Virus genome (UHGV): UHGV-0304565
Length of the DNA: 36,690 nt
Strand: one strand, 5' to 3'
Source: a virus
Under the pieces are notes generated by a model. It did no database searches. It had not been told where the DNA came from and saw only the letters and a list, made by a program, of their open reading frames with translations. Positions 8,948-16,076 of this stretch are shown here, piece by piece. How positions within the stretch are numbered: position 1 is the stretch's first letter; each line of letters opens with the position of its first letter. The position numbers were made by a program, and so were the translations under genes.

Positions 8948-10507
8948 CTAATCTCGTTTCAGAACTCCAAAATCGAATGCGCCATCAATAGGCAATACAC
9001 CTTCTGCAAAGCCAGGTGTGGTGTCGATGATGTGTTTTCGCTCATAAGAGTGAGACAACAGGTATTTGTTGCTAATGTCAATGAAATCAGTGATAAAACA
9101 CACGTTTGCCTGATTCTTCTTGGCTCGTAAGCCACGACCGACACGCTGCCTCATTTCAACTTCTGCTTTCCCACCACCAGCCAGAATGACCGCACCAACG
9201 CTTGGCACATCAACACCGACATCCAGAATAGTCGAGCCTATTAAAACATCTATTTCGCCAGACGCTAAACTGTTCAGCTTTGCTTGCCTTGTCGCCTGGT
9301 TCGATTCCCCATAGATGAAGTCAACTCTAAGGCCGGACTCCTTCATCATCTCCATCAGGATTTGCCCGTGGCGTTTAAGACGAACCAGAGTCATGCAATT
9401 GAGAGAATGTTGCTTATAGAGCAATGCTTCGCGCACAATGGCCTCGTTACGTCCCAAATTATACACGATCCCCAACTGATAAGCCTTTTGGTAGGCTGTG
9501 CTCATACCTACTCTAAAATTAAGGTGTTTGTTGGCAAGTTCCGCCTTGATTCTGACCTCGTCTGGCTTGTAAGCAACTTTATGATAAAGGAAGTACGGTT
9601 TTGCCAGAATGCCTCGATCAATCAGGTACTTTTCTGTGACTTTAATTTCAATTCGCCCGGCCACCGCCATCAGGCGCATGTTGGCTTCCGTCGAATCCTT
9701 CATGAACGGCGTGGCTGTAAGCGCCAGACGATAGTCTGCGTTCACACATAATCTGGCGATGTCATAGAAATTTGAGCCTGAAGACTCATGCGCCTCTTCC
9801 AGAATAAGAAGAGAGACACTTGAAAGGAAGCGTTTCACCAACTCCCGACGTTTGAGGTGGTAGCTCTTTTTATCTGGTGTTGCATCGCGTGGTGGTTCTT
9901 CAAGGAAACTTGCCAGAGTTTGAACTGTAGCGACGTTGATATGTCGTGATACCTGGAACTCACCCGAGCCAATGACTCCAACCTTTTGGTCTTTTAACCA
10001 CGGTTCGCCATTTTCGGCGCGGTAGTCGATGGATCTCTGGAAGTTTTCGGCCATTTGAAACATCAGAACAGAGCGGGTTGTTAAAAATAATGTCATTCGA
10101 CCGATACGTGCAGCTGCTTTGCAGGCAACGTTAGATTTCCCGCCACCAGTAGCGATCTGCGCAATCATCATTCCCTCTCGAACCAGTGTTTCCACAGTCT
10201 GATCCTGATACGCATAATCAGGATTGTATGGGAATGGGTTAACCGCCGGATTTGGTTTTCCAAGCGCCGGGGCTTTGTCTTTGCGGATATGAACACATTT
10301 GATGCCCGCCTTGTTCAAGTTCGCCGCTACAGGCTTGGCAAAGCCAGCAGGGAACGAGTTTTTACTCCAGTTGAACATCGTGCTTGTGCCCTTCCAGTCG
10401 CCAGTCTCGACTTCGTAGCTCAACATTTGCTGCACCAGTTGCTTTACCTTGTCATCTGCGCCAGAAATAAGCGCATTTACTGCGTTAGATACAATCCGAA
10501 CAGTCAT
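8948..10507 (-). CDS. Superfamily-2 DEAD/DEAH-box helicase (519 aa)
   Basis: Walker A ATGGGKS, DExH-like LILEEAHESSG, motif VI QRVGRGLR; SD aaggaaagagg upstream. Confidence 0.8.
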   Translation of the reverse strand: MTVRIVSNAVNALISGADDKVKQLVQQMLSYEVETGDWKGTSTMFNWSKNSFPAGFAKPVAANLNKAGIKCVHIRKDKAPALGKPNPAVNPFPYNPDYAYQDQTVETLVREGMMIAQIATGGGKSNVACKAAARIGRMTLFLTTRSVLMFQMAENFQRSIDYRAENGEPWLKDQKVGVIGSGEFQVSRHINVATVQTLASFLEEPPRDATPDKKSYHLKRRELVKRFLSSVSLLILEEAHESSGSNFYDIARLCVNADYRLALTATPFMKDSTEANMRLMAVAGRIEIKVTEKYLIDRGILAKPYFLYHKVAYKPDEVRIKAELANKHLNFRVGMSTAYQKAYQLGIVYNLGRNEAIVREALLYKQHSLNCMTLVRLKRHGQILMEMMKESGLRVDFIYGESNQATRQAKLNSLASGEIDVLIGSTILDVGVDVPSVGAVILAGGGKAEVEMRQRVGRGLRAKKNQANVCFITDFIDISNKYLLSHSYERKHIIDTTPGFAEGVLPIDGAFDFGVLKRD

Positions 10508-10552: not shown

Positions 10553-10572
10553 ATAAGTAAGTGATTACTTAG
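10553..10572. promoter_or_regulatory. ATAAGTAA-family motif with inverted repeat (AGTAA-gtga-TTACT) in the divergent intergenic region
   Basis: Read directly; adjacent TATAAT at 10548-10553. Confidence 0.4.
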
Positions 10573-10589: not shown

Positions 10590-11270
10590 ATGGATGTAAA
10601 AATCACGATTTTGCAGGTTGATGTTGTCAACCTTCGCCCGAATACCTGGAACACCAATTCGGTTGGTGCGCAGAATTTTGAAAAACTGAAAGGTTCTATC
10701 GAAAAATTGGGCTTTTTTAAGCCAATTTTGGCTCGTGAACTTGAAGATGGATTTTTTGAAATCCTCGGCGGCGAACATCGCTGGCGTGCTGCTATTGAGC
10801 AAGGAATTTCAACGGTTCCGGTGCTTTCTGTGGGCAAAATTAGCGATGTCGTGGCAAAACAGATGTCACTGGTGGACAACGAGCGATACGGTGAAGACGA
10901 CCAAATCGCATTGCAACGCTTCATTGAAGAAATTCAGTCAGAACTTGACTATCAACTGTCTGAAATCGCCCCGTATGACGACGAAATCTCGATGGTTTTA
11001 GCAAAAGAGGCGGCAATCGACCTTGAAGCACTGGAGGCGTTGTCTCGTGGTAGTGATGAGCCTGTCGATACCGACAAACGAGAGAAAACCGAACGTGTGG
11101 GTGCGGAACATCAGACCATGCGCTTCAAAGTAACTTTCGATGCGTCAGATCGTGTTGCAGAAACCATAAAAAACATCATCAAAGAGCAGGCTATTAACAC
11201 CGGTAATGAAATGGAGAACGCTGGTGAGGCTCTGGTGTGGCTGGTCGACTACTACAAGGAGCGTATGTAA
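10590..11270 (+). CDS. ParB/Srx-like N-terminal domain protein 1
   Basis: ILGGEHRWRAA resembles the ParB GERRxRA box. ORF track starts at GTG 10572; start uncertain. Confidence 0.6.
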   Translation: MDVKITILQVDVVNLRPNTWNTNSVGAQNFEKLKGSIEKLGFFKPILARELEDGFFEILGGEHRWRAAIEQGISTVPVLSVGKISDVVAKQMSLVDNERYGEDDQIALQRFIEEIQSELDYQLSEIAPYDDEISMVLAKEAAIDLEALEALSRGSDEPVDTDKREKTERVGAEHQTMRFKVTFDASDRVAETIKNIIKEQAINTGNEMENAGEALVWLVDYYKERM

Positions 11271-11938
11271 TGACCAAAAAGTTTGAAATCGTATATCGCG
11301 ACCCGGCAGATCTTATTCCCTATGAGATGAATGCCAAAAAGCATGATGAACAGCAGATCCGAGATCTGGCCGCAGCCATTAAAAAGCGCGGATTTGACCA
11401 GCCAATTACGGTCGATAAGAACGACGTAATTATTACTGGCCACGGCCGCCGTGAGGCTGCAATTTTTGCTGGACTTGAGCGCGTACCGGTTATTGTTCGC
11501 GATGATCTCAGTGATGACGAGGTTCGTGCGAAGCGCCTTGAAGATAACCGACTTGCCAGCATTGATTACGATGCAATTAAGCTACAGAAAGAGCTTGAGT
11601 CGCTTGTTCTGGACGATATCGAGGTTTTCGGCTTTGAAGAGCGTGAGTTGAATGTTCTCGTTGGCAGTATGACAGAAGAAATGGACACCGACTCGCTAGT
11701 TATCGATCTTGGCGAAGAAACTAAACGACAGAAGGATGAACACACCGAGATCAGTCGTGAAGTTGCAGCGGAAGAAGTACGTGTTGTCGACGTATTGGGC
11801 TTTAAAACGCTCCCTGCTGGCTCTGCCATTGTTGTTGGTGATTTGCTTGCCCATATGGAAGAAATGACGGGAGAAAGCGGGGTAGACGCATTTGTGGCAT
11901 ATGCGGAGAAGATCTCTTCCGGGGAGATGGCTGCATGA
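11270..11938 (+). CDS. ParB/Srx-like domain protein 2
   Basis: ITGHGRREAA motif; ATG overlaps the previous stop (TAATG); SD aaggag 9 nt upstream. Confidence 0.6.
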   Translation: MTKKFEIVYRDPADLIPYEMNAKKHDEQQIRDLAAAIKKRGFDQPITVDKNDVIITGHGRREAAIFAGLERVPVIVRDDLSDDEVRAKRLEDNRLASIDYDAIKLQKELESLVLDDIEVFGFEERELNVLVGSMTEEMDTDSLVIDLGEETKRQKDEHTEISREVAAEEVRVVDVLGFKTLPAGSAIVVGDLLAHMEEMTGESGVDAFVAYAEKISSGEMAA

Positions 11939-12573
11939 GCAAATACATCATCAACGTATCGTTTCAGACACGCGTAAATAAAACCACGCGCACGTTGGAA
12001 ATCGCTGAGTCGTTCGGGCTTGGCCTGGACGAAAAAGAGTGGACGCTTTACGACAATCTGGAGCTGGAAGTGAAGCAGGGCGATGTGGTGTACATCACCG
12101 GCCAATCCGGTTCCGGCAAATCCGTTGTGCTGCGCGAGTTGCAACGACAGATGAAGGATGAAGGGCTGTCTGTAGCCTCCATCGATGATTTTACCTTCGA
12201 TAATGAGGTTAACGTCATCGATCAGTTGGGCAAAACGACCAGTGATGCGCTTGGGTTGTTATCTATGGCTGGTCTGAACGATGCATATCTGTTTGTTCGC
12301 AAGCCTTCTGAAATGTCAGACGGCCAGAAATATCGTCTCAAGATTGCCAAACTGATTGAGTCAGGCGCTAAAGTATGGGCTGCTGACGAGTTCGGCGCTG
12401 TTCTAGACCGTGTAACCGCTCAGGTTGTGGCGTCTAACCTCCAGCGTGCCGCTCGAAAGGTTGGTGCGACGGTAATGGTGGCGACGACTCACGAAGACCT
12501 GAAGAACGCGCTGCGCCCGGATATGCAGATCACCAAGCACTACAAAGAACGCGTGAAGGTGGAATATGCCTGA
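11935..12573 (+). CDS. ABC-type ATPase (minimal nucleotide-binding domain, 212 aa)
   Basis: Walker A GQSGSGKS, signature-like SDGQKYRL, Walker B VWAADEF, H-loop ATTHED; ATGA overlap with the upstream gene. Confidence 0.7.
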   Translation: MSKYIINVSFQTRVNKTTRTLEIAESFGLGLDEKEWTLYDNLELEVKQGDVVYITGQSGSGKSVVLRELQRQMKDEGLSVASIDDFTFDNEVNVIDQLGKTTSDALGLLSMAGLNDAYLFVRKPSEMSDGQKYRLKIAKLIESGAKVWAADEFGAVLDRVTAQVVASNLQRAARKVGATVMVATTHEDLKNALRPDMQITKHYKERVKVEYA

Positions 12574-12820
12574 TTTGAAGATCGTAGAGCTGAAGCCATC
12601 GAAAGAGACTGATAACAACAACGTGGAAGTCATCCGCCTGCTGGAAGAAGCACTTCAGCACGCCAGAGAAGGAAAAAGCCAGAGCCTGGCGCTGTTGATG
12701 ATCAACAACGACGGCAGTGTTCTTGATTGCTGGCATAACGGCGGGCGCCCGTATGTCATGGTAGGGGCGATGGAGTCTCTTCGCCTGGATTTCATCAATG
12801 CCAATATCGAGCGCAGGTGA
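12566..12820 (+). CDS. Hypothetical protein (84 aa)
   Basis: Overlaps the ATPase stop; SD aaggtgg upstream. Confidence 0.55.
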   Translation: MPDLKIVELKPSKETDNNNVEVIRLLEEALQHAREGKSQSLALLMINNDGSVLDCWHNGGRPYVMVGAMESLRLDFINANIERR

Positions 12821-12825
12821 TCGAC

Positions 12826-13716
12826 ATGGCAGATATCATCATCAAACGCTACCGCCCTGAAGAGTTTCCGCGTCATCTGGACTTTCTGGAGCGAATGACT
12901 GTCACAAAGGGAACTGTAGAGGACTGGCACGCTCTTAAGTCGCTTCACTACAAAACAGACGGCAAACCTTTCGCGCCAACATACTATCGCTGCGAACTGG
13001 ATGACCGTCTGGTGGGCGTCGTGGTTATGGCTTACCCGAAACTTCTGCTGGCACCTCGCCATCGCATGTTTCCTAAGTTGAAACCAACCACCAATACCAC
13101 CGTGGCTAACCAGTACTGGGGCCGGTACGTGAATAACAACTTTGCGGTGATCAGCCGCTCAGTTGTGGATACTCAGTACCGTGGCGTAGGCGTCTCTTAT
13201 CGAATGATTAACCTGGTTAGCAGGATGCATGACCGGCCAATCATTGAGATCCAGTCATCGATGAGCAAATACAATCCCTTCGCCATGAAAGCAGGGTTTA
13301 AGTTCATCCGCCCTGAGCGACCGAAGAGCTATGAAAGTGCACTGCGTGTGTTCCAGCGCCATTTCCGCTCCGACCCGGGTGATAACGAGGCGATCGTCAA
13401 AGAGTTGTTCGCTATGAGCGAGTCTCGTCGTCGCCGTGCACTGCGTGATCTGGTGGCGGACTACCACAAAAACAGTTCCCTGGCAAAAGCTGGGCGGAAT
13501 CGTGGCACGACGATTCAGGACATTGCCGACAGTCTGGTGGACGAGGCCAGCATTGTGAAGCTGCTCAAGGACATTCACAACCTGAGCTTTACGTCTCCGT
13601 TGTATGGTGTGTATCGAAACCCTGACTTTGGTCGTCGACTGCCTGACACGCTGCCACTGCTGGCATTCGACAAACAACCTTTGGATAAACCGTTAGAAAT
13701 TGCTTTACCGGCATAA
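12826..13716 (+). CDS. GNAT-like acyltransferase-fold protein with C-terminal extension
   Basis: GNAT motif A-like QYRGVGVSYRMINLV and motif B-like NPFAMKAGFKF. ORF track starts at GTG 12817 overlapping the previous stop; ATG 12826 used. Confidence 0.5.
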   Translation: MADIIIKRYRPEEFPRHLDFLERMTVTKGTVEDWHALKSLHYKTDGKPFAPTYYRCELDDRLVGVVVMAYPKLLLAPRHRMFPKLKPTTNTTVANQYWGRYVNNNFAVISRSVVDTQYRGVGVSYRMINLVSRMHDRPIIEIQSSMSKYNPFAMKAGFKFIRPERPKSYESALRVFQRHFRSDPGDNEAIVKELFAMSESRRRRALRDLVADYHKNSSLAKAGRNRGTTIQDIADSLVDEASIVKLLKDIHNLSFTSPLYGVYRNPDFGRRLPDTLPLLAFDKQPLDKPLEIALPA

Positions 13717-13725
13717 GGATTTGCC

Positions 13726-13992
13726 ATGACGTTAACCGATAAACAAAAGGACATCATCAAAACGCTCAATCTCGGTTATGAGCGAGGTCATCTACTTGAC
13801 CTGGACGAATTGCTTGAAGTTTTGCCGTACAAGACAACCAAGCAAAGTATCCAGTTCTCAATTCGCGCTCTGATAAAAAAGGGGCTGGTGGAGAAAGGGC
13901 ATACGCGCCAACGCAGTGACAATCGCTATCACCGCCGAACTCTTGGGTTAACTACTTTAGGTCGAGCCAAAGCGAAGTTACTGGTGATGTAA
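13726..13992 (+). CDS. Small basic protein (88 aa), possible winged-helix DNA-binding regulator
   Basis: SD aagga 7 nt upstream; segment SIQFSIRALIKKGLVEKG resembles MarR/PadR-type recognition helices (pattern judgement). Confidence 0.45.
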   Translation: MTLTDKQKDIIKTLNLGYERGHLLDLDELLEVLPYKTTKQSIQFSIRALIKKGLVEKGHTRQRSDNRYHRRTLGLTTLGRAKAKLLVM

Positions 13993-14016: not shown

Positions 14017-14071
14017 CCTGCTTCTGTATATATAAATAATAAGTAACTTATTAAATATATACGGAAGCAGG
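14017..14071. promoter_or_regulatory. Long near-perfect palindrome (about 18-bp arms) centred on AATAAGTAACTTATT
   Basis: Left arm cctgcttctgtatatata (14017-14034) against right arm tatatacggaagcagg (14056-14071), one mismatch. Confidence 0.5.
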
Positions 14072-14108: not shown

Positions 14109-14148
14109 AAAACAAGTTGGTTAGCAGATGCAGTAAACAAGTTGTTTT
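14109..14148. promoter_or_regulatory. Two tandem AAAACAA-G-TTGkTT palindromes upstream of the terminase genes
   Basis: Copies at 14109-14122 and 14134-14148, same family as the early-region operators. Confidence 0.45.
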
Positions 14149-14187
14149 AGAGCGCATGGACGCGCTCTGTGTGTTTTAGAGGGATCT

Positions 14188-14820
14188 ATGACGGTCGAAA
14201 AAGACGAGGTAAAAACTCGCCTGACACCAGCGGAGTGGGCCGAAGCTGAAGCCAAATGGACGTCAGGCGAATATACACTCTCAAAGCTGGAGGAAGAGTA
14301 CGGCATTCGTCGTGAAACACTCTCCAGACATTTCAAAAAGCGAGGATTAGAGAAAGGCGCGGACTCTGTTGGGAAGATGGTTCGTGAGTCTCTTAAATCT
14401 GACGCAGAGCTTCGCGCTAAAGCCCGTGCGGAAAAGATAGAAGAACGTCGTACACGTTATGACGGCTGGGCGTATGCGTTGGGGCAGATGGTGATGGTCG
14501 AAGTCACTACGGCCAAACGTGAGGGTAAGCCTTTAGGGGCGATTGAGGATTCTCTCAAGAGCTTACAGAGAGCCAGTAATACCCTTGCAAAATGCTTTGA
14601 AGTTTCGTCCAAAGCATTGGGCATGGATCATGCGGAAAATGACGAGGAAGAAATTCCGAACCTGGTATTTGGTGAGCTTACGCCTTCCCAGGTGGCGAAA
14701 TTACGTCAGGAAGACGACGAGCCTGAAATCATCGATGACGAATTGCTTGAGACGTTGGAAGAAGAAACTCTAAGCGAATTTGATGCGACAGATGATGGAA
14801 GTGAAGGGGAGGACGAATAA
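14188..14820 (+). CDS. terS: Terminase small subunit (putative)
   Basis: Position immediately upstream of terL with 1-nt stop/start overlap; N-terminal HTH-like segment; acidic C-terminus. Confidence 0.6.
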   Translation: MTVEKDEVKTRLTPAEWAEAEAKWTSGEYTLSKLEEEYGIRRETLSRHFKKRGLEKGADSVGKMVRESLKSDAELRAKARAEKIEERRTRYDGWAYALGQMVMVEVTTAKREGKPLGAIEDSLKSLQRASNTLAKCFEVSSKALGMDHAENDEEEIPNLVFGELTPSQVAKLRQEDDEPEIIDDELLETLEEETLSEFDATDDGSEGEDE

Positions 14821-16076
14821 TGGCAATCCCGTCCTCGCTCAGTCTTGTGCAACTGCATTCTGGACAGATGAAAGTCTTCCAGTCTCCGCATCGATTTAAA
14901 GTTGTTTGTGCTGGTCGACGCTGGGGAAAATCCCGGTTGTCGATCTCCACTATTATTCGTGCGGCGGCAAAGGAAAAAAAGCAAAGGGTCTGGTATGTCG
15001 CTCCTACTTACCAGATGGCTCGCCAGATTTTGTGGGACGATCTACAGGAAGTTCTGCCTCGTAAGTGGGTTAGGAAAAAGAACGACACCACGATGACAAT
15101 CGTGTTGAAGAACGGTTCGGAGATCGCCCTCAAAGGTGCTGATAAGCCTGACACTCTGCGCGGCGTAGCGTTGCATTTTGTAGTGCTTGATGAATTTCAG
15201 GATATGAAGGCTGACACCTGGTACAAGGTGTTACGACCTACTCTTTCATCGACACGCGGCGGTGCACTGATCATTGGTACGCCAAAAGGCTTCTCGGAAT
15301 TTCACAAACTGTGGACTATAGGCCAGAACGTAGAGCTGCAAAGAAAGGGACAGTGGAAGAGCTGGCAGTTTGTAACTGCCGATTCTCCGTTTGTGCCTAC
15401 GGCGGAAATTGAAGCTGCTAAGAACGATATGGACCCCAAATCGTTCGCTCAGGAGTACCTGGCCAGCTTTGAGAACATGTCCGGGCGCGTTTACTACCCG
15501 TTCGATCGTAACGTGCATGTAAAACCGCTTCAGTTCAACCCTCGGTTGCCTATATGGGTAGGGCAGGACTTCAACATTGACCCGATGTCTTCAGTAATTT
15601 TGCAACCTCAGCCAAATGGTGAGCTATGGGCAATTGATGAATTGGTGCTCTTTTCCTCTAACACGGCAGAAGTTTGTGATGAGCTTGAGAGACGCTTCTG
15701 GCGCTGGAAATCACAGGTAACGGTATTTCCAGATCCGGCAGGTGCTTATCGCCAACATGCTCGTGGGGAGTCTGACGTAGACATATTCAAAGAGAAGGGA
15801 TTCTTACGTGTCGATTATTCGAAAAAGCACCCGCCAATTGCGGATCGTGTTAATGCTGTTAACCGAATGCTGATGTCCGCATCTGGAGATATCCGGCTGT
15901 ATATCGATCCGAAGTGCAAGCATTTGATTGATTCACTGGAAAAAGTCATCTACAAGCCTGGAACACGAGATATGGATAAGACAGGTGGCATTGAGCATAG
16001 TGCAGACGCATTGGGCTATCCAGTACATCGTAGGTATCCAGTCAAAAACCGTGTTATTCTTGGTGGTTCTCGGTAG
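14820..16076 (+). CDS. terL: Terminase large subunit
   Basis: P-loop GRRWGKS, Walker B HFVVLDEF, C-terminal nuclease-like region; position before portal. Confidence 0.85.
   Translation: MAIPSSLSLVQLHSGQMKVFQSPHRFKVVCAGRRWGKSRLSISTIIRAAAKEKKQRVWYVAPTYQMARQILWDDLQEVLPRKWVRKKNDTTMTIVLKNGSEIALKGADKPDTLRGVALHFVVLDEFQDMKADTWYKVLRPTLSSTRGGALIIGTPKGFSEFHKLWTIGQNVELQRKGQWKSWQFVTADSPFVPTAEIEAAKNDMDPKSFAQEYLASFENMSGRVYYPFDRNVHVKPLQFNPRLPIWVGQDFNIDPMSSVILQPQPNGELWAIDELVLFSSNTAEVCDELERRFWRWKSQVTVFPDPAGAYRQHARGESDVDIFKEKGFLRVDYSKKHPPIADRVNAVNRMLMSASGDIRLYIDPKCKHLIDSLEKVIYKPGTRDMDKTGGIEHSADALGYPVHRRYPVKNRVILGGSR

Follow-up and report, generated by a model that had tools for sequence, protein, structure and literature searches.

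A terminase-adjacent cassette of ParB-like, ABC-type ATPase and GNAT-like genes in SSU5-like phages, most likely acting on viral DNA

Phage thymine dioxygenases of 5mYOX clade E need a ParB-like partner that has a nucleotide-binding and a C-terminal domain and no obvious DNA-binding domain, and terminase genes are frequent neighbours (19%) in the 5mYOX contigs (O'Toole et al. 2026, PMC13229309). ParB-CTPase folds are also found fused to DNA methyltransferases and to acetyltransferases, and one ParB-acetyltransferase fusion binds GTP, according to a survey built on Pfam domains (Kaljevic et al. 2025, PMC12704722). Mom, the DNA adenine methylcarbamoylase of phage Mu, has a GNAT fold and modifies DNA after replication. 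In the uncharacterised family COG2401/'MK0520' an ABC-type ATPase is followed by a predicted acetyltransferase.

We discuss here a cassette with two ParB-like proteins, an ABC ATPase and a GNAT-like acyltransferase. It lies in the window, by which we mean the whole stretch of 36,690 nucleotides that was analysed (UHGV-0304565); this is an SSU5-like phage-plasmid, with 99% identity to Escherichia phage CMS-2020a. The initial annotation did not recognise the combination as a described system, and we found no publication in the literature that describes the module or its linkage of terminase and ParB. The ABC and acetyltransferase pair is already on record as COG2401, and ParB-acetyltransferase fusions are in the 2025 survey.

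Gene order, junctions and flanking features

The open reading frames of the initial annotation are all present (Table 1), as are the motifs that it listed: GGEHRWRAA, GHGRREAA, GQSGSGKS, SDGQKYRL, QYRGVGVS and NPFAMKAGFKF.

Table 1. Features in and around the cassette, by position in the window
Feature	Position	Strand	Remarks
SF2 helicase, UvsW-like	8948-10507	-	Pfam ResIII, DEAD, Helicase_C
ParB1	10590-11270	+	226 aa, pI 4.55; alternative upstream GTG at 10572
ParB2	11270-11938	+	222 aa, pI 4.53; ParB1 paralogue
ABC ATPase	11935-12573	+	212 aa, soluble
Small ORF	12566-12820	+	84 aa, phrog_796, optional
GNAT-like acyltransferase	12826-13716	+	296 aa, pI 9.8; alternative GTG at 12817
Winged-helix-like (wHTH) protein, sixth gene	13726-13992	+	88 aa, basic, pI 10.2
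AT-rich near-perfect palindrome	14017-14071		55 bp, between cassette and TerS-like gene
Intrinsic-terminator-like hairpin and T-run	14148-14178	+	terminator scan; directly upstream of TerS-like start
TerS-like gene	14188-14820	+	210 aa, acidic
TerL	14820-16076	+	Pfam terminase domains

Three of the four stop/start overlaps proposed earlier stand. At the ParB1/ParB2 junction (GTAATGACC) one base, 11270, is common to TAA and ATG, at the ParB2/ABC junction (GCATGAGC) there is an ATGA at 11935, and the ABC gene and the small ORF (ATGCCTGA) overlap by 8 nt, 12566-12573. The fourth, between the small ORF and the GNAT gene (CAGGTGATCGACATGG), requires GTG 12817 as the GNAT start, and is doubtful because the ATG at 12826, 5 nt past the small-ORF stop, is the start annotated in SSU5 and fits the N-termini of 35 homologues, while the GTG has no homologue support. 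Fixed protein ratios through translational coupling are plausible. Stop/start overlaps are commonplace in phage operons and alone do not go beyond chance. What does is the conservation of gene order in distant relatives, together with fusion of the same domains elsewhere.

The small protein had been counted as part of the module, a view that we reject. About half of the close relatives are without the 84-aa ORF (present in 38 of 79, and missing from Cyrano and PhiR41_1), and other small genes, likewise morons, fill its ABC-GNAT position in relatives L004 and L005. It is an unrelated optional insert outside the module core, and insertions fall exactly at the ABC-GNAT junction. The wHTH gene (phrog_900) is in 79 of 80 close relatives, and in the SSU5/Nickievirus-type lineage always comes after the GNAT gene; in L003-L005 and nickie the position is held by an ORF of 87-113 aa (87, 92, 100 and 113). 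Its product gave only weak matches, to the Sta1/Lrs14 and LexA DNA-binding wHTH families.

The cassette is next to the terminase genes, as first noted, with a gap of 195 nt between the wHTH gene and the TerS-like gene. The TerS-like protein matches phrog_867 ('DNA binding domain', 4.4e-100) and its stop overlaps the TerL start; from its position this acidic DNA-binding protein is the probable small terminase subunit. TerL has Pfam domains Terminase_6N, Terminase_3 and Terminase_6C, and matches phrog_10250 and phrog_2. The palindrome in the gap has 17-nt arms that are 94% complementary (DNA fold -17.3 kcal/mol, z = -7.45), and inside it, 62 nt past the wHTH stop, is the point at which the records of SSU5 and Cyrano were opened to linear form. 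A regulatory or packaging-related role for the palindrome is possible. The hairpin beyond it probably ends the cassette transcript, and L004, L005 and nickie have a similar GC hairpin and T-run just before the TerS-like gene. Given this terminator-like site between cassette and terminase operon, the cassette may be expressed at an early or middle stage and not in step with packaging. On the other side the helicase gene is transcribed divergently from the cassette and is in the same place in L003, L004, L005 and nickie; this neighbour is limited to the SSU5/Nickievirus-type lineage and is not beside the module in other lineages.

Domains of the cassette proteins

ParB1 (phrog_723) has an N-terminal ParB/Noc-type nucleotide-binding domain with box II GGEHRWRAA and a box III-like DNERY, followed by an acidic linker and, at the C-terminus, by a beta-alpha-alpha region that is conserved. 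ParB2 (phrog_930) has a more divergent box II, GHGRREAA, and its family matches the ParB1 family with 98.6% probability (hhalign). Both pass the Pfam cut-off of 26.3 bits for PF02195 (ParB_N), with 49.5 bits for ParB1 and 35.2 for ParB2. However ParB1 scores 43 bits for TIGR00180, below the cut-off of 58.45, and the ParB1-family profile matches only the N-domains of the Noc/ParB structures 7nfu, 6sdk and 6t1f. No HTH or other recognisable DNA-binding domain was detected in either protein by domain and profile searches. The AF2 model of ParB1 (pLDDT 37.5) was too low in confidence for use. Since the pair is acidic, without a DNA-binding domain and with a deviant box II, DNA loading and NTP binding by these proteins are assumptions on our part.

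The ABC ATPase has a complete set of motifs (Walker A GQSGSGKS, signature SDGQKYRL, Walker B VWAADE, D-loop AVLD and the H-loop His in TTHE), with 50.2 bits for PF00005 (ABC_tran) against a cut-off of 25, and among PDB entries it is closest in sequence to transporter NBDs. It also has a family-specific N-terminal motif, IAESFGLGLDE, in common with the ABC part of fused ABC~GNAT proteins. Pfam thus confirms two ParB_N domains and one ABC_tran, and the profile searches called for earlier do not reveal a standard partition system.

In the GNAT-like protein the GNAT core (about residues 20-160) has the CoA-pyrophosphate motif YRGVGVSY, with the canonical R-G-x-G CoA loop retained, and is followed by a conserved helical domain of about 130 residues for which no relatives were recognised. 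Most members of the family escape Pfam. The GNAT module is basic family-wide (median pI about 9.4-9.8), which fits a polyanionic substrate, and its top viral structural match is Mom, a DNA-modifying GNAT.

Conservation, fusions and genome context

The gene order of the cassette is kept in relatives that are only 41-45% identical. Every complete close relative has intact copies of its genes, and the ABC and GNAT genes were never lost among 80 relatives; these two are as conserved as TerL, with ParB1, ParB2, wHTH and TerS evolving faster. The cassette is in the core genome of the SSU5/Nickievirus-type siphoviruses, which are of about 110 kb.

Hundreds of remote homologues, of the COG2401 type, are ABC~GNAT fusions with the ABC part first, and the family-specific motifs of both halves recur in them. 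Many other viruses, of bacteria and of archaea, thus have the two parts in a single protein. Among viruses there are also ParB~Zn-ribbon~ABC~GNAT triple fusions, whose N-termini match the ParB2 family with 97.7% and the ParB1 family with 96.5% probability (hhalign), and in Planctomycetota prophages fused ABC~GNAT genes are flanked by ParB_N genes that stand alone. Domain fusions and conserved gene order support the earlier view of one functional module, and show that the ParB-like pair, ABC ATPase and GNAT protein form one functional unit.

The module is also found in a fusion with a family-B DNA polymerase (PolB~ABC~GNAT) located inside a replication module, and in one further context, an SPbeta-like replication module. 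It is beside TerL in four arrangements: in Pseudomonadota phages (the window, L003-L005 and nickie); in a sediment virus (L009), where the triple fusion is followed by a 158-aa ORF, TerL and portal; in Planctomycetota prophages (L187, L199 and L203); and in Bathyarchaeia-type viruses, with TerL directly upstream in 51 of 80 loci. Some fused homologues (L188 and L190) are among cellular genes with no phage context. As an association, the link of the module to DNA transactions is shown. Gene adjacency is no guide to the identity of the substrate.

Proposed function and comparison with known systems

The module most likely acts on viral DNA, judging from these sequence comparisons. The initial annotation had offered a DNA or RNA modification, packaging-associated or anti-defence role; the ParB and PolB fusions, four terminase arrangements and TerL-level conservation of ABC and GNAT narrow this towards a core function linked to DNA or packaging, and speak against a dispensable anti-defence accessory. 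We tentatively suggest, as the preferred reading, an acyltransferase that is guided by ParB, gated by ATP and active on viral DNA around packaging. The cassette would be a single multi-subunit enzyme, with the soluble ABC ATPase and basic GNAT-fold acyltransferase as its engine and the acidic ParB-like paralogues as partner or targeting subunits, a role presumed by analogy with the ParB partners of phage thymine dioxygenases and with ParB-methyltransferase fusions. The ParB-like pair would keep the enzyme on phage DNA, and ATP-driven dimerisation of the ABC subunit would gate or position the GNAT domains, which would acylate, with acyl-CoA as the donor, a target on phage DNA that has been replicated and is about to be packaged. 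The target would most likely be a DNA base, following a Mom-like logic in a different enzyme family, and the wHTH protein and intergenic palindrome may give site specificity or regulation. We found no literature report of DNA modification in SSU5-like phages.

It is rather unlikely, but deserves consideration, that the module is a packaging accessory whose acetylation target is not DNA but a protein or small molecule, with ParB and ABC coupling it to DNA or the motor. Candidate targets are terminase, portal, the ParB-like or TerS-like proteins, DNA-bound nucleoid proteins, which need clearing before packaging, and polyamines, which neutralise packaged DNA. The recurrent terminase adjacency, in four arrangements, is in keeping with this, and the acidic ParB-like and TerS-like proteins (pI 4.5-4.6) could offer a docking surface to the basic GNAT (pI 9.8). 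However the PolB fusions and replication-module contexts indicate DNA generally and not the packaging motor, the module is conserved in bacteria and archaea although host nucleoid proteins differ, and the terminator-like site parts the cassette from the terminase operon.

We consider it unlikely that the acyltransferase serves anti-defence or host takeover by inactivating some factor of the host, such as an immune protein or a signalling nucleotide. There is a precedent in AcrVA5, a GNAT anti-CRISPR in which an acyltransferase inactivates a host immune factor. Anti-defence has been suggested as a role for phage ParB-fold fusions (PMC12704722), and the variable small genes inserted in the cassette are a frequent trait of accessory regions. 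Against this are the TerL-like conservation of the ABC and GNAT core, never lost in 80 relatives, and its presence in Pseudomonadota, Planctomycetota and Bathyarchaeia viruses with differing host defences. In PADLOC the GNAT protein had no match, and the ABC ATPase had only matches of the generic P-loop kind.

An RNA (tRNA) cytidine-type acetyltransferase like TmcA/NAT10, with a GNAT that modifies a nucleobase and is powered by an ATPase, is quite improbable. The pairing of ATPase and GNAT is that of TmcA and the GNAT module is basic, and in phage nickie genes for tRNA-Met and tRNA-Asn lie a few kb upstream, but the window has no tRNA genes, Pfam gave no TmcA-type domain matches, the ATPase is ABC-type and not helicase-type, and ParB-like partners, PolB fusions and terminase adjacency indicate DNA.

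That the cassette is an ordinary ParB partition system of a phage-plasmid, or an auxiliary gene for an ABC transporter, as in public annotations ('ParB-like partition protein', 'ABC transporter' and 'ABC transporter ATP-binding subunit' in GenBank) and in line with the relation of the element to phage-plasmids, is hardly credible and is contradicted by the sequence evidence, as the cassette has no ParA-type ATPase, its ParB-like proteins have no HTH and are under the TIGR00180 cut-off, no transmembrane segment was found in any cassette protein and no permease gene was found, the annotated 'ATP-binding subunit' is a GNAT fold without a P-loop, the module is also in archaeal viruses and in Nickievirus phages, which have long terminal repeats and were isolated as lytic siphoviruses (PMC11256456), and L005 has a separate ParA-family gene 6 kb upstream. 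The ATPase is a true ABC-type NBD, and we uphold the earlier statement that the cassette does not encode a ParA/ParB partition pair.

With regard to known systems, canonical ParABS ParB/Noc proteins are the best PDB profile matches of the ParB-like pair (Noc 7nfu; ParB 6sdk, 6t1f and 7bnk). However the cassette proteins differ in being acidic, in having no HTH and no detectable ParB C-terminal domain, in partial replacement of the box II arginines (GGEHR and GHGRR) and in the lack of ParA, and the module is also in non-plasmid viruses. The phage ParB-methyltransferase fusions phrog_498 and MTase_II PDLC03229 (PADLOC) have an N-domain like those of the cassette, ParB2 matching at 1.7e-31 and 2.9e-17 respectively. 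For such fusions the sections consulted of PMC12704722 report no ABC ATPase component and no terminase link. The 5mYOX ParBs are, like ours, phage ParB-fold proteins beside an enzyme, a likeness of description, but there is one of them, with an Fe/2OG dioxygenase as partner, whereas the cassette has two paralogues with an ABC ATPase and a GNAT.

Mom is as basic as the cassette GNAT (pI 10.0 and 9.8), and a similar HY motif and beta-hairpin align, with no significant sequence kinship (hhalign 0.6% and 22%; no PF25680 match). The R-x-x-G-x-G CoA loop, retained by the cassette family, is lost in Mom, which also acts with neither ABC nor ParB partners and has no terminase link. A further close system is COG2401/'MK0520', a label that JGI and some GenBank records give to the family in the window; being without assigned function, COG2401 explains no mechanism. 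The order is identical, and the motifs EAFGLGxDE before Walker A, FHYK, RGxG, YNPF and C-terminal Y.xW.NP are common to both, but COG2401 has the two domains fused in one protein, and the window has them as two adjacent genes between which optional genes can be inserted.

Gene layout and the region before the terminase genes

The cassette region is 99.3% identical to the corresponding region of Escherichia phage CMS-2020a and 98-99% identical to that of phages Cyrano and PhiR41_1, the value being 86% for Salmonella phage SSU5 and 81-82% for phage-plasmids of Klebsiella, and on this basis we take the window to be part of an SSU5-type phage-plasmid of about 108 kb. The genes were checked by a six-frame ORF list and by direct reading of the junctions, and all of those proposed in the initial annotation are present at the positions in the table. 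Every motif quoted there was also found in the sequence, and for the two ParB-like proteins and the ABC protein the domains proposed agree with Pfam, which gives ParB_N twice and ABC_tran. Three of the four overlaps that had been described between the genes are as first read (TAATG, ATGA and one of 8 nt), but the fourth requires a GTG start at 12817 for the GNAT-like gene. The ATG at 12826, which is 5 nt past the stop of the preceding gene, is favoured by the SSU5 annotation and by the N-termini of 35 homologues. We do not count the stop/start overlaps as significant in themselves, as they are normal in phage operons.

Features of the cassette and its flanks in the window
Feature	Position	Strand	Basis or remark
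UvsW-like helicase	upstream of cassette		divergent transcription
ParB1	10590-11270	+	six-frame ORF list, junction reading
ParB2	11270-11938	+	six-frame ORF list, junction reading
ABC	11935-12573	+	six-frame ORF list, junction reading
Small ORF (84 aa)	12566-12820	+	six-frame ORF list, junction reading
GNAT-like	12826-13716	+	six-frame ORF list, junction reading
88-aa gene	13726-13992	+	six-frame ORF list, junction reading
AT-rich near-perfect palindrome, 55 bp	14017-14071		DNA fold z = -7.45
AAACAAGTTG, two copies	14110-14119, 14135-14144		25 nt apart, between palindrome and terminator-like hairpin
GC-rich hairpin with T-run	14148-14178		directly upstream of TerS-like start codon
TerS-like gene (phrog_867), then TerL	after 195-nt gap 3' of cassette		

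In GenBank, both SSU5 and Cyrano are linearised within the palindrome, 62 nt past the stop of the 88-aa (wHTH) gene, and the palindrome may have a part in regulation or packaging, or be a mere assembly break point. The AAACAAGTTG repeats are a possible site for a DNA-binding protein, for example the wHTH or TerS-like protein. The hairpin has counterparts in two of the distant relatives with the same gene order (L004, 11442-11478, and L005, about 11430-11465) and in Pseudomonas phage nickie (L012, 7400-7428). Given this conservation of position, the cassette from ParB to wHTH and the terminase operon look like separate transcription units, or the hairpin marks a point of regulated read-through.

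Domains of the ParB-like, ABC and GNAT-like proteins

Both ParB-like proteins have the N-terminal ParB/Srx domain (PF02195, 49.5 bits for ParB1 and 35.2 bits for ParB2, cut-off 26.3) and they are paralogues (hhalign 98.6%). The profiles of both families match Noc/ParB N-domains in the PDB, and the resemblance to the ParB/Noc nucleotide-binding domains ends in each case at about residue 100. A match was also obtained between the window's ParB domains and that of phage ParB-methyltransferase fusions. Box II deviates in both proteins from the canonical GERRxRAA, being GGEHRWRAA in ParB1, with the first Arg replaced by His, and GHGRREAA in ParB2. Pfam gave no match in either protein for HTH_ParB, the central parS-binding domain, and the whole-protein score with TIGR00180 is 43 bits for both, under the cut-off of 58.45. 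No ParA partner was found in the cassette, where the sole ATPase is ABC-type and the CbiA/ParA match of 19.1 bits is below the cut-off of 25.4. The view in the initial annotation that this is not a ParA/ParB partition pair is thus upheld by the family of the ATPase (PF00005), the lack of HTH_ParB and the TIGR00180 score. The AlphaFold2 model of ParB1, made from a shallow alignment of 9 sequences that are all at least 85% identical, is poor (pLDDT 37.5), and for this reason the beta-alpha-alpha, ribbon-helix-helix-like form of the C-terminus is only a hint.

The ABC protein has the Walker A (GQSGSGKS), signature (SDGQKYRL), Walker B (VWAADE), D-loop (AVLD) and H-loop (TTHE) motifs in that order, and scores 50.2 bits with PF00005 (cut-off 25). 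Its closest PDB matches are transporter NBDs. A transporter function was considered and is rejected because there is no membrane segment in any cassette protein (no hydrophobic 19-residue window above 1.5); no permease family was found among the cassette neighbours.

The GNAT-like protein had no match in Pfam, NCBIfam or PADLOC, and a PDB search with both the sequence and the profile gave chance matches only (AlkD, E ~1; a myosin chimera, E 0.19). It has hundreds of homologues, and an alignment of 36 of them has 39 invariant columns. With this alignment as input AlphaFold2 gave a confident model (pLDDT 86.7) that has the alpha/beta fold of the GNAT superfamily. Motif A (Q/R-x-x-G-x-G/A) is found in the CoA-pyrophosphate loop Y-R119-G-V-G122-V-S-Y125, in which R119, G122 and Y125 are invariant across the 36 homologues; the counterpart in proteins where this domain is fused to ABC is PKYRGIGLG, and remote fused relatives score at or near Pfam GNAT cut-offs (for example P0236, Acetyltransf_1, 25.6 bits against 20.7). 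For the helical C-terminal domain, about 130 residues long, no relative was recognised. The protein is basic (pI 9.8), whereas the ParB-like proteins are acidic (pI 4.5), and the basic character is family-wide, with a median pI of 9.4 in proteins that stand alone and of 9.8 in the GNAT half of fused ones.

Among predicted viral structures the best match of the GNAT-like protein is Mom. Membership of the Mom family (PF25680) is rejected, with no Pfam match and with hhalign probabilities against 24 Mom homologues of 0.6% for A1 and 22% for A5. We regard the likeness to Mom as one of fold only, a specific relationship being rejected at the sequence level.

The unit has, then, an ABC ATPase that is complete, a GNAT fold whose CoA loop is intact and a pair of ParB-fold nucleotide-binding domains.

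Conservation, fusions and genomic context

Among 80 close relatives in IMG/VR the genes for ParB1, ParB2, ABC, GNAT and the 88-aa protein are intact wherever the contig spans them. The 84-aa ORF (phrog_796) is present in 38 of 79 close relatives and is absent from Cyrano and PhiR41_1, and the cassette minus this ORF is a conserved core module. These conservation statistics were served by searching viral contigs with the GNAT family of the window, a scan that gave close relatives only and was of no use for distant context. ABC, GNAT and TerL are slow to change, their identity being no lower than 80-86% even among the most distant of the close relatives, and change is faster (58-78%) in ParB1, ParB2, the small basic protein and TerS. 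This is the pattern expected for a catalytic core with faster-evolving specificity subunits, and not for a dispensable accessory.

The order in distant relatives is a helicase diverging from ParB, ParB, ABC, variable small genes, GNAT, small basic protein, TerS-like, TerL and portal, with the GNAT proteins at 41-45% identity. We found this order in prophages in two metagenomic contigs and Ectothiorhodospira, and in Pseudomonas phage nickie; for phages of Rhizobium, Stenotrophomonas and Xanthomonas, 105-120 kb in size, the finding is of the GNAT-like gene itself. The junction of ABC and GNAT is a hot spot for insertions (12566-12820 in the window), with three genes in L004 (8961-9999), which code for Phage_gp49_66, a RyR-domain protein and an unknown, and two small ORFs in L005 (9262-9736).

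A profile of the GNAT family found 877 relatives among 1.84 billion representative proteins. Many of them are of 450-500 aa, with the GNAT-like part as the C-terminal half and ABC_tran (Pfam) as the N-terminal half, and the alignment of the fused proteins has family-specific motifs common to both the ABC and GNAT proteins of the window. A motif ahead of Walker A, for instance, is EAFGLGxDE in the fusions and IAESFGLGLDE in the window ABC. Four relatives of 666-699 aa have an extra N-terminal ParB-like domain and a zinc ribbon, and in hhalign the N-termini of these triple fusions match the ParB2 family at 97.7% (E 2.4e-12) and the ParB1 family at 96.5% (E 1e-9). A family-B DNA polymerase is the fusion partner in two relatives, and in one there is an intein in the ABC domain (these are among P0204, P0173 and P0164). 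In P0204, from an uncultured virus, PolB, ABC and GNAT are in a single protein of 1260 aa (L006/L007, 10001-13783). The intein bears a LAGLIDADG domain. The fusions show that the parts of the cassette work together, and synteny and fusions combined mark ParB1, ParB2, ABC and GNAT as one conserved unit.

With regard to position, the module adjoins the terminase genes, as first reported, and adjacency to TerL is found in the window arrangement and in three others. In a sediment virus (L009) the genes after the triple fusion P0227 are a 158-aa ORF, TerL, portal and a Mu-F-like gene. In Planctomycetota prophages (L187, L199 and L203), a set in which the complete Planctomicrobium sp. SH527 genome is represented, a fused ABC-GNAT gene stands next to a separate gene for ParB_N and just upstream of TerL. 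This TerL is of the Pfam family TerL_ATPase, which differs from the family of the window TerL. In Bathyarchaeia viruses and proviruses, 51 of 80 IMG/VR loci and several MAG contigs have the fused gene directly 3' of TerL and in the same orientation; the 51 loci are 50-99% mutually identical and are counted as one lineage. The PolB fusion lies in a replication module with a primase-polymerase, RecA and a 5'-3' exonuclease, and another fused gene is within an SPbeta-like replication module. The common denominator of the terminase and polymerase links is viral DNA, and the unit is genomically tied to DNA-handling machines.

Three further observations concern particular loci. The sediment virus also has a canonical-looking ParB of 457 aa, with ParB_N and HTH_ParB, about 1 kb upstream of the fusion and on the opposite strand (L009, 5502-6875, minus strand), so that ParB-fold proteins of two kinds coexist in this virus. 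In a few Planctomycetota copies, in MAG contigs of Gemmataceae and Phycisphaerales (L188 and L190), the fused ABC-GNAT gene is amid cellular genes (for a sulfatase, GH10 and a xylose-isomerase-like TIM barrel) and no phage genes were detected close by; these copies may be prophage edges or domesticated. The ends that many IMG/VR contigs have shortly after the fused gene were considered as genome termini and rejected, as in 12 of 71 loci the end falls exactly on the stop codon, which points to provirus trimming at gene boundaries; in the IMG/VR loci (L093-L172) there is no contig end within 2 kb upstream of the fused gene.

Possible function and relation to known systems

The module recognised in the initial annotation is real and was well read. 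Its suggestion of a DNA or RNA modification, packaging-associated or anti-defence role has been narrowed by the comparative data, and is unproven. We tentatively prefer the reading that the module acylates DNA bases, and regard it as quite possible. The ParB-like pair would keep the enzyme on phage DNA, ATP-dependent dimerisation of ABC would gate the GNAT domains, and an acyl group would be passed to DNA or to something bound to DNA. The full proposal is of a previously unrecognised DNA-modification machine, common to bacterial and archaeal tailed viruses, in which an ATP-gated GNAT acyltransferase held by ParB folds acylates viral bases at replication or at the hand-over to terminase, and in this form it is possible, if less likely than not.

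Published ParB precedents support the logic of this mechanism by analogy. Phage thymine dioxygenases need a co-encoded ParB-like protein that has nucleotide-binding and C-terminal domains and no DNA-binding domain, and terminases are frequent neighbours of these ParB-dependent enzymes (PMC13229309). Fusions of the ParB-CTPase fold with methyltransferases and with acetyltransferases occur in both phages and bacteria, and the nucleotide bound by this fold is CTP, ATP or GTP (PMC12704722). Against the mechanism, the GNAT-like protein is not in the Mom family, the ParB-like proteins are acidic with no DNA-binding domain, a terminator-like hairpin stands between the cassette and the terminase operon, and DNA modification in these phages is undocumented.

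The target could instead be a protein or small molecule within packaging, which we think unlikely; if the packaging machinery is the target, the module would be a new terminase accessory. An anti-defence role is improbable; PADLOC models for known anti-phage defence and GNAT toxins gave no match for the GNAT-like or small proteins, and for ABC there were partial P-loop matches only (mad3, PtuA). RNA acetylation is very improbable, the ATPase being ABC-type and there being no Pfam or NCBIfam match to the TmcA/NAT10 architecture of helicase-type ATPase, GNAT_acetyltr_2 and tRNA-binding domain; a tRNA link was dropped, as the window has no tRNA genes. That the module serves partition or transport is scarcely credible.

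If DNA modification is the function, acyl-CoA-dependent, ATPase-coupled chemistry would join the known phage DNA modifications, and a new machine of this kind would imply a new acyl-type DNA mark. By taxonomic spread it would be among the more widespread of such systems, as the unit is in enterobacterial phage-plasmids (common in clinical Klebsiella, E. coli and Salmonella), phages of plant pathogens, Planctomycetota prophages and Bathyarchaeia viruses. Whether the target is DNA or packaging machinery, this would be the second independent case, after the thymine dioxygenases, of the ParB nucleotide-binding fold as an enzyme partner and not a partition protein; that ParB folds can be partners of DNA enzymes has only recently been recognised. 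Close relatives that could be used for experiments include Cyrano and PhiR41_1, the latter with E. coli K-12 MG1655 as recorded host.

Public annotations of the module genes are inconsistent and misleading, those of SSU5 and Cyrano among them. The ParB2 gene of phage nickie (L012, 4322-5014) is labelled 'DNA methyltransferase', the GNAT-fold protein is an 'ABC transporter ATP-binding subunit' in PHROGs and RefSeq, and other labels are 'ABC transporter' and, for ParB-like proteins, 'partition protein'. This widespread mis-annotation is corrected by the present analysis, whichever reading holds.

In the literature searched, Krishnan et al. 2020 (NAR, ABC-ATPase classification) apart, we found no description of the three-part ParB/ABC/GNAT unit, of its fusions, of its core-gene status in SSU5/Nickievirus-type phages or of the way in which its link to the terminase recurs in viruses of bacteria and archaea. 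Each of the domain families is already known, and the pairing of ABC with an acetyltransferase has been catalogued but is uncharacterised. The family is named COG2401 or 'MK0520' by JGI and in some GenBank records, and on the evidence of architecture, shared motifs and the JGI name it has an ABC domain with this same GNAT-like domain, either fused or adjacent, as in the window.
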